Source of the DNA: a virus
DNA length: 64,000 bases
Strand: one strand, 5' to 3'
IMG/VR virus record: IMGVR_UViG_3300021168_000016
Coordinates: 32,001-96,000 of that record
The position numbers and the translations under genes are program-made. The notes beneath the pieces are model-generated. The model saw nothing but the letters and a program-made list of their open reading frames with translations, did not search any database and was not told the origin of the DNA. This document shows, in pieces, positions 9,877 through 52,585 of the stretch (position 1 is the stretch's first letter; each line of letters opens with the position of its first letter).

Positions 9877-11531
9877 CTAAGCGAGCCCCCTGCTAATGCC
9901 ACACTCCGCATATCACCTTCAAATAAGTAGCTACCAAGATGCGTGGTCTTCATGAAGGGAGCAATGTATACTTTCATCCCAGCAGCGCGTGCATCCAGGC
10001 AGAATGCATAATCTTCGGAGACATAATGGGGAAGACCGCCTGCATTGAACTTACCTGACTCAGGATCTATCTTTGACTGGAAATACATGTATACAGGAGT
10101 ATTTTCCATTTCTCCCCGCATCGGGAGATGCCATCGACCCTCTGTGTGGAAGTTAGAGAACTTTAGGAAGGCTTCTCTCTTAACCCGCATCAATCCTGTC
10201 CCACCATGCTGTACTTCTAGCAGTTTATCTAAAGCAATCTCTTTAGGAGCATTATCAGGCGGGAAATTGAGTACGTACTCACCGAGAAGGGATTGCATCT
10301 CACCGACTGTGTAATCCTTCTCTGGATGCTGCTTTACTGCCTTCTGAACCCTGTCTAAGCGGAGATTCTTTCTAACACAAGGAGCACAGATAATCTCTTC
10401 ATCGTGGGTTAGGAGAGCAAGTAGATCATTAGGATCAAACCCTATATCTGCATCAATAAAGAAGAAGTCTGTAGCACTTGACTCAGTTAAGTATTTGCTC
10501 ACTAGCGTATTCCGTGCTCTAGTGATTAGACTCTCATTGTACAGGAAAGCAGTTTGGTACTTGATTCCCCAATCAATACAGATTGCCATTAAACTCGTCA
10601 ATGAGTTGACGTAGTTAACAGCCATCATTCCACCATAAGCAGGAGTAGCAATATAGATAGACTTTGTTCTAAGATAGTCTTTCATCGCTTGCTTCTGCTT
10701 ATCTGTAGGTGAAAGACTATATGCAGGGCGTTTTACACTTTCATCTTTCGGCTTTATATCCGTTACAATCCCTGTAGAAGCAATACGTTGAAGTGTATAA
10801 GCATCTACCTTATACTTTGCTGCTAACTTCTCATATGAAGCAATCTGCTGTCTCTGGAACGCATCAAAGCCGATATTCTTCTCGAATGTAGTAGGACCAC
10901 CTTTTGGTCCAGCTTCATGCTGTACTACTACCTTAGCGGCTACAGCGAGCTCATAATCAGCCATTCGTGCTCTTAAGCAGTAGTCAAGATCATCGGACCC
11001 AAAGCTATCAAACTGTTCATCCAGGAAGCCAATCTTATCGATAAGTTCTCTCTTGATGTACACACACGGGAACCACATCTGCATCGGAACAATAGGTTCA
11101 ACCGGGTCTACTACTTGGGAATTAGCCAGTGACGGATTAACTAGCATATAACTCCCTCGACCAACAATACGAGGAGAAAGAATGCCAATCCGAGGATACG
11201 CATAAGCAATCCTCTGAAGATCCTCGATAGTGTTCTTCTGCAGGAATCTGATGTCATCCCCTACGTAGAGTACATCGTGATCTTTCGGTACTGCCTTCAA
11301 GCCTAAGTTCCCGTTTCCAGCCATCGAGAACTTCTCAGGCCCTTTGATTGTAACGACATATGGTTCAAGAGAACCTTGCCACTTCTCCATCGGATCTGGA
11401 CTAGACCCATCAACAACGCAGTAAACAGTATTCTTAACACCAAACTTTCGAAGTGATAAAAGGAAGGGAATGTAAACATCTATATACTTCGCGAGTACAA
11501 CGATAGCGACAGGTCTATCGGGCTTGCTCAT
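9873..11531 (-). CDS. two-domain GT-A glycosyltransferase (GT2-like plus phage GT-like domain)
   Basis: N-domain GDD, IGFLDEQF, DDLDYCLRA; C-domain IATPAYGG, ESLITRARN, FFFIDADI, SEDYAFC. Confidence 0.85.
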   Translation of the reverse strand: MSKPDRPVAIVVLAKYIDVYIPFLLSLRKFGVKNTVYCVVDGSSPDPMEKWQGSLEPYVVTIKGPEKFSMAGNGNLGLKAVPKDHDVLYVGDDIRFLQKNTIEDLQRIAYAYPRIGILSPRIVGRGSYMLVNPSLANSQVVDPVEPIVPMQMWFPCVYIKRELIDKIGFLDEQFDSFGSDDLDYCLRARMADYELAVAAKVVVQHEAGPKGGPTTFEKNIGFDAFQRQQIASYEKLAAKYKVDAYTLQRIASTGIVTDIKPKDESVKRPAYSLSPTDKQKQAMKDYLRTKSIYIATPAYGGMMAVNYVNSLTSLMAICIDWGIKYQTAFLYNESLITRARNTLVSKYLTESSATDFFFIDADIGFDPNDLLALLTHDEEIICAPCVRKNLRLDRVQKAVKQHPEKDYTVGEMQSLLGEYVLNFPPDNAPKEIALDKLLEVQHGGTGLMRVKREAFLKFSNFHTEGRWHLPMRGEMENTPVYMYFQSKIDPESGKFNAGGLPHYVSEDYAFCLDARAAGMKVYIAPFMKTTHLGSYLFEGDMRSVALAGGSLR

Positions 11532-17926: not shown

Positions 17927-18006
17927 TTGCTTTACCTTACCCCACCGGACCTCACCACAACGTACCTAACCCCGCCAGACCTCACCAGACCAGACCCTGC
18001 CGTGTC
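17927..18006 (-). ncRNA. orphan (GGY-NN)x16 pentamer guide-like RNA (VIPR-type)
   Basis: minus strand GACAC GGCAG GGTCT GGTCT GGTGA GGTCT GGCGG GGTTA GGTAC GTTGT GGTGA GGTCC GGTGG GGTAA GGTAA AGCAA. Confidence 0.8.
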
Positions 18007-18015
18007 ATTTCAAAA

Positions 18016-18282
18016 TCATGCGGCCTGTTTAGCCTTGACTACAGCACGCTTCCCAGTAAAATCACCGTTTGCTTCAGATTGGAAAGTGTACATGCCATCA
18101 ATTCCAGTTTGGACTGTTCCATCAAGAGTATGGTAAGCTTTTAGCCGACCTCGCTTCGTCTTCTTGACGAAAATTGGTCGGTAGACAACAGCGATGACCT
18201 CTAGACCGTTAGCATCCTTTTCTCCATGACCTGGCTCGATAGTAAAACCTAATCCGAGCAGGCTATTTGATTTCTCTGCCAT
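18016..18282 (-). CDS. hypothetical protein; its 5' codons resemble the decoded downstream guide
   Basis: AAGGAG RBS and TAGCGGTATA promoter-like motif upstream. Confidence 0.7.
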   Translation of the reverse strand: MAEKSNSLLGLGFTIEPGHGEKDANGLEVIAVVYRPIFVKKTKRGRLKAYHTLDGTVQTGIDGMYTFQSEANGDFTGKRAVVKAKQAA

Positions 18283-30200: not shown

Positions 30201-33200
30201 CCATGATTGACTATCTCGAATCCATGCCTGAATCAATAGATCAGACCATCGAGTATGTCAGGCAGAAGTTGCAAGAGAAAAGAGACAAGGTAGCAGGTTG
30301 GAACAAGAAGGCACGCGCCGCTGTTGATACAGCAACTTGTCCTGATTGCGGACACAAACTGCATACAGGAGTCTCTTGTCTGGAATCTGATTGCTGTGGG
30401 TGCGGAGAGTGATATCAACTCCGCTTTCACTCCTGTTTGTATGTCTAGTTGCTTCAACGATCCGAGCATTCTGTGAGGGTGCTGTGAAAGGAGTATACAA
30501 GCTCGTGCTATTGTTGGTATTTGTGAAATGTTTGATTATGTTAGCGGCACTAACGTCTGGGCAGTAGAAGTGAGGTCTGGCCATGCATGTTACACAAAGC
30601 GTTGACCGTGCTCCAATCACCAACATCACAATCAATTGCGATTGTGATGATTTACGTATGGAGACATTTTCTCTCTACGTGGAGATGTTGAATATATATG
30701 ATGTTTGCGCCGCTGCTATTCCTGAATGGAGAAGGAGTCAACGCAGACATCAAAATCCAAATCCTAACTGGAAGAACTAAAACATCTGCGACATAGATCA
30801 GCCAGTCTGATATAGGCTGGCTGATGTTTGTTTCATGTGTTAAATCCAATAGAGGAGTTGTAAATGACAACGACAGAACAACCTGACCAAAAATTCAGCT
30901 CAGCCGATGAAATAGCAAAGACGCTATTACAGAAGCATCCCAACTGGAACGCCAGCCAAAATGAACTAAAGAACACAATCCTGGCAAGTCCGAAAGACTC
31001 CGGCACCGACGAAGCTCCAGTCTATGACGTCCAAAAGACGATGAAGAACATGGAGAAAATGAGCGAGCGCTGGGAGAAAGCTGCTTAATACTGTTGTCGA
31101 TCGATGACAAAAGGCTGATGCAGAATATAGCATCAGCCTTTTGATGTGGATCGTCAATCAAGGGAGACTACAAAATGCTTGGAGATTTGACTAGGCTGAC
31201 AGATACACAACTGCTTGAATTCTTCATGTTGATCTTAAGCAAACCAGACAAAGAAATCTCACCATTCGATCACAGTGAAATGACTCAAATCAATGATGAA
31301 TTCCTTAGACGGGGATTTGTTAGGGAAGCATACGCTGATTTACTGGCCAGTAAGGAGAAATAAGATGGACGAATGGTATTGCATGAATTGTGGGAAGCAA
31401 CTAGTAAAAGTAAAGCTGGATGAAGGTGATTTTCCTTGCTGCCTGGATTGTGCAATTAAGTATACAATTCATGGGACGGGAGTAGGCGATTCACTGTTCG
31501 TCGTAGGGGCTGACTCCCTTAAGATTACATTCTAAGGTTGCCCTATAGAAGCAGTGATAACCCCAGCCATTCGTAGCGATCTTGGTCGCAACCTAGATAA
31601 GAAAGGAGGATAGCCAATGCGGGAAAAGATGGTCATAGAAATTACTCCTGATCGCATAGAAAAGATGAAAAAGGTAGCAGTAGCCGTAGTCGAACTTATA
31701 GGTGCAAGCGACCTCACAGTGATAGAAAAGTATCTCTGTCTTAAGTATCTGTCTGAGACGTTCACTGACACATATAAGATAGAGGCTGAAGTCTTTGAAG
31801 TCTCTACTGCAACTGATAGCAAAACTGCGAATTGAGGGACAAATGAAAAAAGAAGACGAACAGTTGAATAAACTTCAAGCAGCGGGAAATGATGTCGTCT
31901 CCCTCCTTAATGAAAGGGGATTAACCCCAATTGAAATGCTGCTAGTCATCACAGCGCTCTACACCTCCATGGCACAGGCTCTTGGAGTAGTAGATCCCGT
32001 TGGAATGCTAGCTTCAAAGATGAAAGACAACAAAGGTAGGAATTAAGGACGAATGCAGTGATCCTGCAGACCTGATGGCCATGACGATGGCCATCTTGAA
32101 GTAAATAGTTAAAACGGCTTAGTTAAAACTAAGGGAAGGAACATATGCCACGCAAACGACGAGTAATCGTCACAATGAAACCCGACAGCATGTACTATGC
32201 TGTCTCAATCGAAGTAGAGGGAAAGTCGAAAGGGAGTTGGGAAGCAGTTAGGCCGGCAAAGTTGATCCACAAAAGGAGAATCGAGGCGAACCGATTAGGG
32301 TATATGATTGCAAGTATGCTAGTCTTGTCCGCCAAGGAGAAGTGAAGCTGTTATATTAAGAGCTCATTGGTATCTTACTGTATTGAAAGACAAGATTTGG
32401 GGTTGACAAGCAAATGAAAGGATCTCAGAATGGAACTCTACAGATGCCTCGACTGTGATTTCGTTGGTAATCTTGAGAAAGGAGGATGCTCCAAATGCTG
32501 TAGTCAGGCGACAATTTCTGAGGAAATTGTCAGGATTCACGATATAGAGTATGAAGTAATCAACACAGAAAGAGAAAGAGAAGAGGAATGTGCCTCTGTT
32601 CTAGTTGCAACTCCGCTCCCTGTAGCTGTAAGAAAGAAGAGTCAGTTAACTCTTCTTTTGATCATGATTTCCTCCGCTACCAGAACAAAATTCTCTTCAA
32701 TGTCATCCAAAGGGGTAAAATCCAGGTAGAGAGTAGCCCCAAACCAAACCCTTCTAAGTAGATACTGAACTCAGCCGTCATGTTTCAAGTAATTATGACG
32801 GCTGATTTGTGTATCTAAGGGAGAAGAAATGAATAACGATAGAGTCGTTCATGCGTTTCAGATGGTTATGTCAGTCCCTTTAGCACCTGATGATAAAGAA
32901 GAATACTTGCAGATGAAGCACACGGTACTCAATTGTCTTGCGATAATCGCAGAAGCAGGAAAGTTAGAAGTGGAGCTCAATCAAGCACTTGAAAACATAA
33001 CCGCAATAGTAAAGGGATCAGAATTCCGTAACTTTATAAATGAGTATCACAAAGCTGAGAAAGGAAAGAAGGACCATGCTAACTAGCCTATTGAAGGCAG
33101 ATGAACATCAATACATGAAAGAAATGATTGAAGAAGCAGAATATCAAAACTTCTGCCGAGAGCATCCTCACCTAAAGAAATTCACAGAGACATTTCGACG

Positions 33201-50429: not shown

Positions 50430-50900
50430 ATGGTCTACTTCATTCAAAGTGCCTGCCCAAAAGGGCTTATCAAGATAGGTAATTCGGATAAACCCTTAAC
50501 CAGGTTGAAAGAACTTCAAACAGCTAATGGTTACAAACTGACATTCCTGAAGATTATTCAGGGAGGTTATCAGGAAGAATTAATCACAAAGAAGAGATTC
50601 AGGCAGTTCCGTGTTTTGGAGGGCGGAACCGAGTGGTTTAAACCAGAAAAGGAACTACTCGATTACATCAAATCACTGGTATTAGAACAGGCATTTGAAA
50701 TGCCTACTACTTACCAAGAAATACCTGGAAAGTATGATCCGAGTATTATATCACAAACAGCACTACTTTCTTTGTCTAGTCGAAGACAACTTTCAAAGAG
50801 GACTGAGATAAGCAATGAACAACTTCTTTCAACGGTGAAGAAGCAAGAATTACCTTCACGAATTGATTTTTCGTTACAAATCAAACTAAGGAGAATATGA
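50430..50900 (+). CDS. GIY-YIG/T5orf172 family nuclease domain protein
   Basis: VYFIQ...IKIGNS..PLTRLKELQTAN...EWF. Confidence 0.8.
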   Translation: MVYFIQSACPKGLIKIGNSDKPLTRLKELQTANGYKLTFLKIIQGGYQEELITKKRFRQFRVLEGGTEWFKPEKELLDYIKSLVLEQAFEMPTTYQEIPGKYDPSIISQTALLSLSSRRQLSKRTEISNEQLLSTVKKQELPSRIDFSLQIKLRRI

Positions 50901-51555: not shown

Positions 51556-51879
51556 GATTCGATGCGATGCAATACGCTGAAATATGATAGGATTTGATGG
51601 AATATAATCTAATCGGATTAGATTTGATAAGATACGAAGTATTTTTATACTGGAATTATGATAGGATCAGATCAAATCTGATGGAATCAAATCGGATAAA
51701 ATAAGATCGAATGTGATCTGAGAGAATGAGATTTAATTTGATAAGATATGAAGTATTTTTATACTGGAATTATCATGCGATGAGATAAGATGTAATATAA
51801 TCTGATACCATCAGCCAAGATCTGTTTTGATGGGACCGGATGCGATATGATACGAGATTTTTCACTTTCGGAGAATCTC
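51556..51879 (+). ncRNA. array of three (RAT-NN)n guide-like RNAs (16, 18, 16 pentamers) with identical 24-nt linkers and terminal hairpin
   Basis: units 51556-51635, 51660-51749, 51774-51853; linker GAAGTATTTTTATACTGGAATTAT at 51636 and 51750; final GAGATT...AATCTC hairpin. Confidence 0.85.
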
Positions 51880-51880
51880 T

Positions 51881-52585
51881 GTGCTACAAGACTCCCTCGA
51901 CAAAATAATCGGAACATACTTTGCAGGAATTACTCGATCAAGTTTTACTTACAAAGACAGAGTCTACCCACCACAAAATCTTTTAGTAAGTCATTTGTTG
52001 TTTAGAGGATACACTTGTCCTGAAAATTGTGGAGGGTGTTGTCCGCGATTTTCTCTGGATTACCTGACCTCAGAGTACTGTCCGATGCCACAAGTCAAAC
52101 TCAGGGAAGTTGACTTTAATGGGAGTAAGATTCCCATTATATCCGATATGCAACTTGATCATCAGGACCACCATTGCAAAAATCTGACTAAATCAAACGG
52201 CAGATGCGGAATTCACGGAAACCAACCATTTTCATGTGATTTTGAATTATGTCGATTTCTAACCTTCAATGACAGAAATGTATTAACTTCCAAATTATTC
52301 GGTAGAGGCTGGGCTTTTCTTCGAACCGATAACGAAAGAGGAGCTCTTTGTGAGATGCTTCCAGTCACTAAAGAAACGATTGACGAAGTCATAAGGAAGC
52401 TGATCCGATTAAAGCAGTGGGCAGAGTATTTCGGCGTCGATCATTGCTTAGACGCTATAATCCAATGGGCAAGATCAGGATCAGGAATGGATCTTCTTAT
52501 CCCGAAACACAAAAAGGTGGGACTAAATATAAAAAGCATTTCCGGCCCGCAAGAAGAAGACCCGTTAATTCAAATAGAGTTATGA
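51881..52585 (+). CDS. YkgJ/CxxCxxCC cysteine-cluster protein
   Basis: CPENCGGCC...CKNL...GRCGIH..QPFSC. Confidence 0.7.
   Translation: MLQDSLDKIIGTYFAGITRSSFTYKDRVYPPQNLLVSHLLFRGYTCPENCGGCCPRFSLDYLTSEYCPMPQVKLREVDFNGSKIPIISDMQLDHQDHHCKNLTKSNGRCGIHGNQPFSCDFELCRFLTFNDRNVLTSKLFGRGWAFLRTDNERGALCEMLPVTKETIDEVIRKLIRLKQWAEYFGVDHCLDAIIQWARSGSGMDLLIPKHKKVGLNIKSISGPQEEDPLIQIEL

Follow-up and report, generated by a model that had tools for sequence, protein, structure and literature searches.

The Vipr-like protein and its guide arrays

The stretch analyzed here (the window) comprises 64,000 nucleotides, positions 32,001 to 96,000 of the 125,421-base virus record IMGVR_UViG_3300021168_000016 of IMG/VR, which is of soil origin; positions are given in window numbering unless stated otherwise. 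The window contains a gene for a Vipr-like protein, three units of five-nucleotide (5-nt) repeats that begin at the first base past the vipr stop codon, and a YkgJ-like cysteine-cluster gene (the resident gene) that begins 28 bases past the end of the third unit (U3) (Table 1). U3 is a predicted guide to the family of the resident gene, and the resident copy differs from it by amino acid changes and by silent changes of codon. The GC content of the phage is 41-44%, and two DNA runs contain the identical phage with no variants.

In the description of VIPR published in 2026, Vipr proteins are minimal RAMPs related to Cas7 (RRM core, G-loop, and thumb) and polymerise on guide RNAs (vrRNAs) composed of repeated GGY triplets and variable dinucleotides (NN). 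Pairing with DNA is through the NN bases, with one base in three, as a rule that at the wobble position, left unread (the 1-nt skip rule), and no protospacer adjacent motif (PAM) is used. Described targets are genes of rival phages and satellites, with phages aiming guides at each other; targets were called at an NN identity of at least 80%, and no self match is reported there to have passed 0.8 (bioRxiv 10.64898/2026.04.26.720920, 10.64898/2026.10.15.759431). The VIPR papers permit a triplet of "a related consensus", and non-canonical triplets are described (bioRxiv 10.64898/2026.10.21.760802). The pentamers of the present locus consist of a (G/A)AT triplet and a variable dinucleotide and thus depart from the canonical GGY triplet.

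Pfam and PDB sequence searches with the Vipr-like protein gave no match. Its AlphaFold2 model (pLDDT 93.3) was closest in Foldseek to type VII Cas7 and Csm3 (E down to 2.8e-7, probability 1.00, TM approximately 0.5), a comparison made with Cas7-type RAMPs, the PDB to 2026-04-08 holding no solved Vipr structure for direct comparison. The protein carries a glycine-rich C-terminal motif in which G188, G192, R197, and G205 are invariant, has 739 representative homologues, and is encoded by a single vipr copy in the 125-kb genome. Furthermore, at least one called 5-nt-periodic array was present in all 80 viral loci fetched with Vipr homologues. Because the 5-nt arrays directly follow a RAMP-fold protein and the loci of the family all carry arrays, the locus is a VIPR system. 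The wobble-skipping guides assumed in the original prediction agree with the published 1-nt skip rule of VIPR.

The fixed triplets found among relatives of the Vipr-like protein (loci L047-L126) include GAC, mixed GAC/GAT, GTT, GGC, and GGT/CGT, and to judge from these arrays the triplet preference appears to shift quickly inside one Vipr protein family. A reading of the 5-nt repeats as an origin of replication or as iterons was rejected in view of the RAMP fold and of arrays recurring throughout the family. Scanning the window against Rfam and for tRNA genes gave no match, and Tandem Repeats Finder run on the window did not report the array.

Table 1. Features of the VIPR locus and of the GGY guide in the window (window numbering; aa, amino acids).
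Feature	Position	Strand	Basis or remark
GIY-YIG-like (T5orf172/MUG113) gene, upstream of vipr	50430..50900	+	Pfam PF13455 E=1.4e-6, PF10544 E=6e-5
Vipr-like RAMP protein, 217 aa	50902..51555	+	AlphaFold2 and Foldseek
vrRNA unit 1, 16 (G/A)AT-NN pentamers	51556..51635	+	1/16 triplets off consensus
Sigma-70-like promoter TTGATA-16-TATACT in inter-unit repeat, before unit 2	51624..51651	+	10/12 consensus match only
vrRNA unit 2, 18 pentamers	51660..51749	+	1/18 triplets off consensus
Promoter-like repeat, second copy, before unit 3	51738..51765	+	Consensus match
vrRNA unit 3 (U3), 16 pentamers	51774..51853	+	5/16 triplets off consensus (CAT, CAT, GCC, GTT, GAC)
Hairpin after U3, contains GGAG ribosome-binding site (51869-51872) of next gene	51851..51883	+	-11.6 kcal/mol, z = -1.6
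Resident YkgJ-like cysteine-cluster gene, 234 aa	51881..52585	+	PF03692 E=2e-4, 22.4 bits, just under cutoff 23
U3 footprint on resident gene, codons 130-145	52268..52315	+	TTA 52283-85, TTA 52295-97, AGA 52304-06
Solo GGY-NN vrRNA (G17), begins right after 88-aa gene	17927..18011	-	21/28 bases match 88-aa gene
88-aa gene, codons 6-19 (18264-18223) face G17, TTA at 18252-18250	18016..18282	-	9/14 residues compatible with G17

U3, the resident gene, and the YkgJ-like family

The dinucleotides of U3 read GC GA AA GT AT CT AC CA AA CT TT GG CG GC AT AC, of which NN 2-13 (the 12-NN core) spell D-[KN]-V-[IM]-L-T-[HQ]-[KN]-L-[FL]-G-R. The resident gene has 420 homologues, some labelled YkgJ family or Fe-S cluster protein at source; protein-level counts below refer to the best 120 of these, 119 of which were scored. 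Five of the closest homologues (62-67% identity) read Q/R/S/L-D-R-V-I-L-T-Q-K-L-F-G-R-G-W-A and are compatible with U3 at 11 of 16 residues, ten of them consecutive, compared with 8 of 16 for the resident protein. The gain falls exactly at resident mismatches (V, I, Q), and none of 200 shuffled guides reached 11/16 on the 119 homologues. In all 11 closest homologues the residues T, Q, second L, F, G, and R are compatible with U3, while its last three NN never fit their invariant G-W-A. The last two U3 pentamers (GATAW GATAY) are common to units 1 and 2 and are probably scaffold. Conservation is high at three positions considered further below: L139 and R142 each occur in 118/119 homologues, and L135 in 87/119.

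Comparison at the DNA level drew on more distant homologues from 43 viral loci (29-57% identity), the closest homologues (65-69% identity) lying outside it. In register on the DNA of two of these loci (L030 and L010), U3 matches 20/24 bases (0.83) on the 12-NN core and 23/32 (0.72) over all NN. Across the eight codons of the LTQKLFGR block the resident gene matches 11/16 bases; 20 of 24 viral homologues score higher and 4 of 24 lower. Further searches were unproductive: the full-length U3 and G17 patterns had no match in viral contigs, genome contigs gave none to the core of U3 or to the peptide of the relatives in codon-neutral form, single-protein and alignment searches found no close relatives in viral contigs, and tblastn against cultured phages returned only homologues of less than 60% identity. 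Taken together, the dinucleotide string identifies U3 as a predicted guide to the YkgJ-like gene family as relatives carry it.

Codons 130-145 of the resident gene read AAT GAC AGA AAT GTA TTA ACT TCC AAA TTA TTC GGT AGA GGC TGG GCT and encode N D R N V L T S K L F G R G W A. U3 CT, CT, and CG therein face TTA, TTA, and AGA. This is exactly the sequence relation on which the original prediction was built, namely that the phage may evade its own guide by the one kind of synonymous change that alters a read position. Over all NN, 17/32 read bases match (0.53), with 5 of 16 dinucleotides fully matched and 8 of 16 residues compatible; on the 12-NN core the count is 15/24. Autoregulation of the resident gene by U3 was considered and is ruled out by an identity of only 0.53. 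The 11 mismatched codons comprise three silent block switches and eight amino acid changes. Restoring the three switched codons would raise identity to 20/32 (0.63), or 18/24 (0.75) on the 12-NN core, still below 0.8; therefore, by the published criterion, the silent switches are unneeded. Amino acid changes alone hold the U3 self match under the published threshold, and the silent route is neither the sole nor the main route of U3 mismatch in the resident gene.

The start predicted from each promoter-like repeat lies at the first pentamer of the following unit, and units 2 and 3 may accordingly be separate transcripts; U3 and the YkgJ-like gene may also share one transcript. The GIY-YIG-like gene is possibly an accessory (vap) gene, a suggestion based on position only; nuclease vaps are described from VIPR types III-V. 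Among the 43 loci with YkgJ homologues, a single GGY array was present in the flanks (L022, 6603-6672), approximately 3 kb downstream of the gene. In Pseudanabaena phage Pan1 (ON968452.1, 46235-46933) a YkgJ-family gene is annotated beside a queuosine tRNA-ribosyltransferase gene, a neighbourhood that hints at membership of the YkgJ-like family in 7-deazaguanine DNA-modification modules.

Codon blocks at guide-faced sites

Leucine, arginine, and serine (the six-fold codons) are each encoded by two codon blocks, and a codon in the "other block" mismatches the guide at read positions. The resident gene departs from the codon block most common in the family at 3/3 conserved six-fold sites inside the U3 footprint, compared with 7/23 outside (one-sided Fisher P = 0.046). 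A site counts as conserved here if at least about half of 29 homologues share the resident residue, and the choice of sites was made with the pattern already known. Beyond the footprint, CTN is used at seven of nine conserved leucine sites of the gene. Moreover, the resident gene has three other-block codons, compared with at most one in each of 12 homologues with the same L, L, and R.

A second guide in the window, G17, is of the GGY type. The original prediction held that the 88-aa gene beside it likewise carries TTA where the guide has CT. Of the three codons facing CT, one is indeed TTA; the remaining codons, CTG and CTC, agree with the guide. G17 matches codons 6-19 of the gene at 21/28 bases (0.75), with 9/14 residues compatible. 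This is its top site in the genome, and 0/200 shuffles reached 21. A metagenome homologue (L001) fits G17 better, in frame, at 23/28 (0.82), and a further homologue (P0004) is compatible at 12/14 residues compared with 9 for the resident protein. Together, the six-fold sites faced by U3 and G17 are other-block in 4/6 cases (P = 0.12).

GGY-NN units are present at three places besides the (G/A)AT array, namely the G17 position and, beyond the window, 72806-73074 and 78093-78172 (104806-105074 and 110093-110172 in genome numbering). Their heads are of the TAAGATTTGACA type and their ends of the GGCAAGG type. These units may act as solo vrRNAs served by the Vipr of another phage, or the resident Vipr may load both kinds. 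For units 1 and 2 and the five GGY units outside the window, no own-genome match above chance was obtained and targets were not found.

The same comparison was performed for 251 distinct guides from 80 other Vipr loci, with the last two NN of each dropped; for each guide, the best in-frame residue-compatible site in own-locus open reading frames (ORFs) of at least 60 aa was compared with 100 shuffles. Own-locus matches at P <=0.01 were found for 8/251 guides (3.2%) versus 6/1506 shuffled guides (0.4%). At agreeing six-fold sites these eight guides faced the other block in 19 of 23 cases, with 11.6 expected from locus usage (Poisson-binomial P = 0.00035); 13 guides with P of 0.01-0.2 gave 15/24 with 10.0 expected (P = 0.012). 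The remaining 230 guides, serving as control, gave 222/456 with 223.5 expected, and shuffled guides passing the filter gave 3/9 with 4.4 expected. Without one locus (L069) the eight-guide set retained 15/19 (P = 0.034). At base level, scans of the other loci for self matches were mixed in outcome.

The L069 locus (57% GC) carries a 14-NN guide between a terminase large-subunit gene (Terminase_6C) and vipr. The guide spells Y-R-L-Y-R-R-D-E-[KN]-G-[SR]..., and approximately 215 bases upstream of it the terminase of the same phage carries YRLYRRDERGRIVK, with 11/14 residues compatible (0/2000 shuffles reached 11). The terminase peptide is coded TAC AGA TTG TAT AGA AGG GAT GAG and matches its own guide at 17/28 bases; the four six-fold codons in it all belong to the minor block, AGR and TTR accounting for 16% and 19% of usage there. 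An exact pattern of the first eight NN of this guide plus one Gly was found at 119 sites in 117 viral contigs, all in the same terminase motif, on which the guide scores 19-26/28, with 111/119 at 22 or more. A codon-block-neutral version of the pattern was found in at least 120 stretches; 54 of the 120 matches listed carry at least one other-block codon (one in 33 contigs, two in 16, three in 4, and four in 1). The sole contig among those 120 with all four switched (L265) is 91% identical to L069 over the terminase end. At a further locus (L048), 10/12 residues are compatible with the guide (0/2000 shuffles) and three of four six-fold sites are switched. Guides thus fit relatives' alleles better than the resident one, with 11 versus 8/16 residues for U3, 23 versus 21/28 bases for G17, and mostly 22-26 versus 17/28 for L069.

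On the reverse strand of L265, at approximately 11120-11500 (reverse-complement coordinates), two 10-base repeats alternate with spacers of approximately 8 bases and a period of approximately 18, directly after the terminase gene, where L069 has its vrRNA and vipr. The array looks TIGR-type, which suggests that different RNA-guided systems swap at one hot spot.

Proposed self-avoidance by codon-block switching and its alternatives

CRISPR systems distinguish self from non-self by a PAM or by the flanks of the repeat, and must likewise spare the DNA of their bearer. VIPR differs in operating without a PAM; therefore, sparing of a resident homologue must come from mismatches at read positions. 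In the favored interpretation, to which a probability of roughly 55% is assigned, U3 targets the YkgJ-like gene of relatives and the phage's own copy is spared by amino acid changes together with silent codon-block switches. A vrRNA of fixed triplets and variable dinucleotides would bind DNA with two bases read and the next one passed over. U3, presumably expressed and loaded on Vipr, would be aimed at the conserved D-[KR]-V-I-L-T-Q-K-L-F-G-R segment carried by the closest related phages, and during co-infection would silence the rival's gene copy. The own copy would be spared because 11/16 read dinucleotides are mismatched, its identity of 0.53 lying below the 0.8 threshold. At variable residues the mismatch would arise by amino acid change (V to N, I to V, Q to S), and at the conserved Leu135, Leu139, and Arg142 by block switch (CTN to TTA, CGN to AGA), a switch in a Leu, Arg, or Ser codon being the only silent change that a wobble-skipping guide would see. 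Selection against self-silencing, acting on the gene, the guide, or both, may have produced the silent switches.

A number of observations, given here and with the alternatives to which they belong, weigh against this interpretation. The match of U3 to the resident gene is at chance level, 169 sites in the 125-kb genome scoring at least 17/32, and in a six-frame scan the resident footprint was not the top match of U3 in the genome. Eight of the 11 mismatched codons are amino acid changes, a few homologues fall below the resident gene on the LTQKLFGR block, and those compared at the DNA level are the more distant ones. The parallel drawn to the 88-aa gene is weak: one of its three leucine codons is switched, and the self identity of G17 (0.75, or 0.83 on 12 NN with the last two, probably constant, NN dropped) is not clearly avoided. 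In the survey of other loci, the array caller, guide boundaries, and ORF filter were rough, the choice of thresholds followed a first look at the data, and the pooled P owes most to L069. Two guides there match their own locus closely, one at 15/16 (0.94), in frame in a 158-aa ORF (L120, 3495-3544), and one at 17/20 (0.85), antisense, inside or beside its own vipr (L076, 2467-2526); these self matches could represent autoregulation or real self-targets.

The strongest alternative, although considered unlikely, is codon bias combined with ordinary divergence, in which the own copy is safe by its amino acid differences and TTA, TTA, and AGA are simply favored AT-rich codons under no selection. 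In 166 crudely called genes of the genome, TTR makes up 32% of leucine codons, with TTA (20%) the second commonest, and AGR 52% of arginine codons, with AGA (33%) the commonest; the resident gene itself has TTR at 10/26 and AGR at 9/14. The probability that all three U3-faced six-fold sites are other-block is accordingly 0.053 by genome usage and 0.095 by gene usage (n=3). In addition, identity would stay below 0.8 even without the switches, and TTR or AGR also appears at individual sites in further AT-rich homologues. Usage alone does not readily account for the concentration of switches at conserved sites inside the footprint, the predominance of CTN at conserved leucine sites elsewhere in the gene, or the lack of a comparable homologue (0/12) with more than one switch. 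The same excess is, moreover, found in other VIPR phages, and in L069 it runs contrary to codon usage. The comparison of TTA and AGA at guide-faced sites with background, proposed in the original prediction as its check, therefore yields no significance by usage and a borderline value at conserved sites. From this window alone the recoding claim is no more than suggestive, and selection is not distinguishable there from AT-rich codon bias.

Escape from the guides of other phages appears improbable as the source of the switches. Here the motif would be a common VIPR target and the switches defensive, with the phage's own guide arising later or independently. Phages are described in the published VIPR work as targeting each other, switched codons are frequent among the terminase matches listed, and L265 has a fully switched terminase allele on a contig in which no L069-type guide was found. 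Against this, no other phage's guide to the YkgJ motif came to light, although no systematic search was made, and the fully switched terminase allele is rare (1 of the 120 matches listed) and belongs to the lineage of a guide bearer.

Also highly improbable is a reading of U3 as a remnant in decay and without function in the 5' leader of the resident gene; the likeness to the family would then be a relic, with no present selection on the gene. The proportion of off-consensus triplets in U3 exceeds that in units 1 and 2 (Table 1), and the tail of those units is not shared. However, the NN string still spells the family motif at 11/12 core positions, related arrays tolerate mixed triplets (GAC, GAT, AAC, GGC), and a promoter-like site of its own is present. 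Chance resemblance of a short degenerate string to a neighbouring gene can practically be dismissed: shuffled U3 did reach 8/16 residues in frame somewhere in the genome in 102/300 trials, but homologues lift the score to 11/16 exactly at the resident mismatches, a value that shuffles never attained.

Self-escape by the silent route, as originally proposed, thus stands in part. U3 addresses the gene family, the self match lies under 0.8, the switches fall on conserved residues, and pooled support was obtained elsewhere; most of the mismatch, though, is due to amino acid change. The silent escape route is probably real, though in this phage by itself support for it is weak. Codon-block avoidance is probably characteristic of VIPR phages whose guides target genes that they also carry; this window is consistent with it, short of demonstration. 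The switches may reflect recoding of the gene, survival of guides only where the resident allele already differed, or an earlier escape from rivals' guides, the last of which is in line with L265.

The locus resembles VIPR type II of Escherichia phage SUSP1 and a Pseudomonas fulva prophage, as these are described (bioRxiv 10.64898/2026.04.26.720920, 10.64898/2026.04.26.720927, 10.64898/2026.10.15.759431), in having a lone RAMP-fold protein beside 5-nt-periodic arrays, in the predicted wobble-aligned reading of two bases with one skipped, and in the predicted targeting of rival mobile-element genes. In both cases there is no self match of 0.8 or more, and the published vrRNA-targeting vrRNAs also score lower on self than on non-self. 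It differs in its fixed triplet, (G/A)AT in place of GGY, and in the position of the guide, immediately next to the copy of the targeted gene family that the phage itself carries. Reported non-canonical arrays (GAC/NN, CAC/NN, WGT/NN, TGH/NN) similarly combine an alternative triplet with a neighbouring protein of Vipr-like fold; the examples noted from that paper do not include (G/A)AT, and targets and self-avoidance are not its subject (bioRxiv 10.64898/2026.10.21.760802). The VIPR papers state that wobble skipping blocks target escape by synonymous mutation, and no mention of the Leu/Arg/Ser codon-block route was found in the main texts searched. Whereas synonymous escape is held closed there, in this phage and at other loci the self copy differs by the block changes in Leu, Arg, and Ser that remain.

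The pairing of guide and target also has an engineered parallel. In synthetic ClvR/TARE cleave-and-rescue gene drives, which are of the toxin-antidote kind, the guide targets an important gene and is closely linked to a rescue copy recoded to escape its recognition. It is tempting, if rather doubtful, to regard the guide and the silently recoded, resistant target allele as a tightly linked "silence-and-rescue" cassette, a natural counterpart of such drives. Unlike these, which are engineered, nuclease-based, and used in animals, the present arrangement is natural and probably acts by silencing. Were it such a cassette, it would shut down a rival's conserved gene in co-infection while its own copy works, and recombinants gaining the guide would also have to gain the resistant allele, so that the pair would spread as a selfish unit.

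The VIPR papers leave open how a PAM-less system spares a bearer that carries the targeted gene. On the cassette reading, Leu/Arg/Ser block switching would be the general mark of self and non-self in PAM-less VIPR, and at the same time the one silent escape available to its victims. A loophole of this kind in the six-fold codons would explain how guides can be aimed at conserved genes shared with rivals, would predict the sites of escape mutants, and would provide a simple design rule for guide-resistant alleles in VIPR tools.

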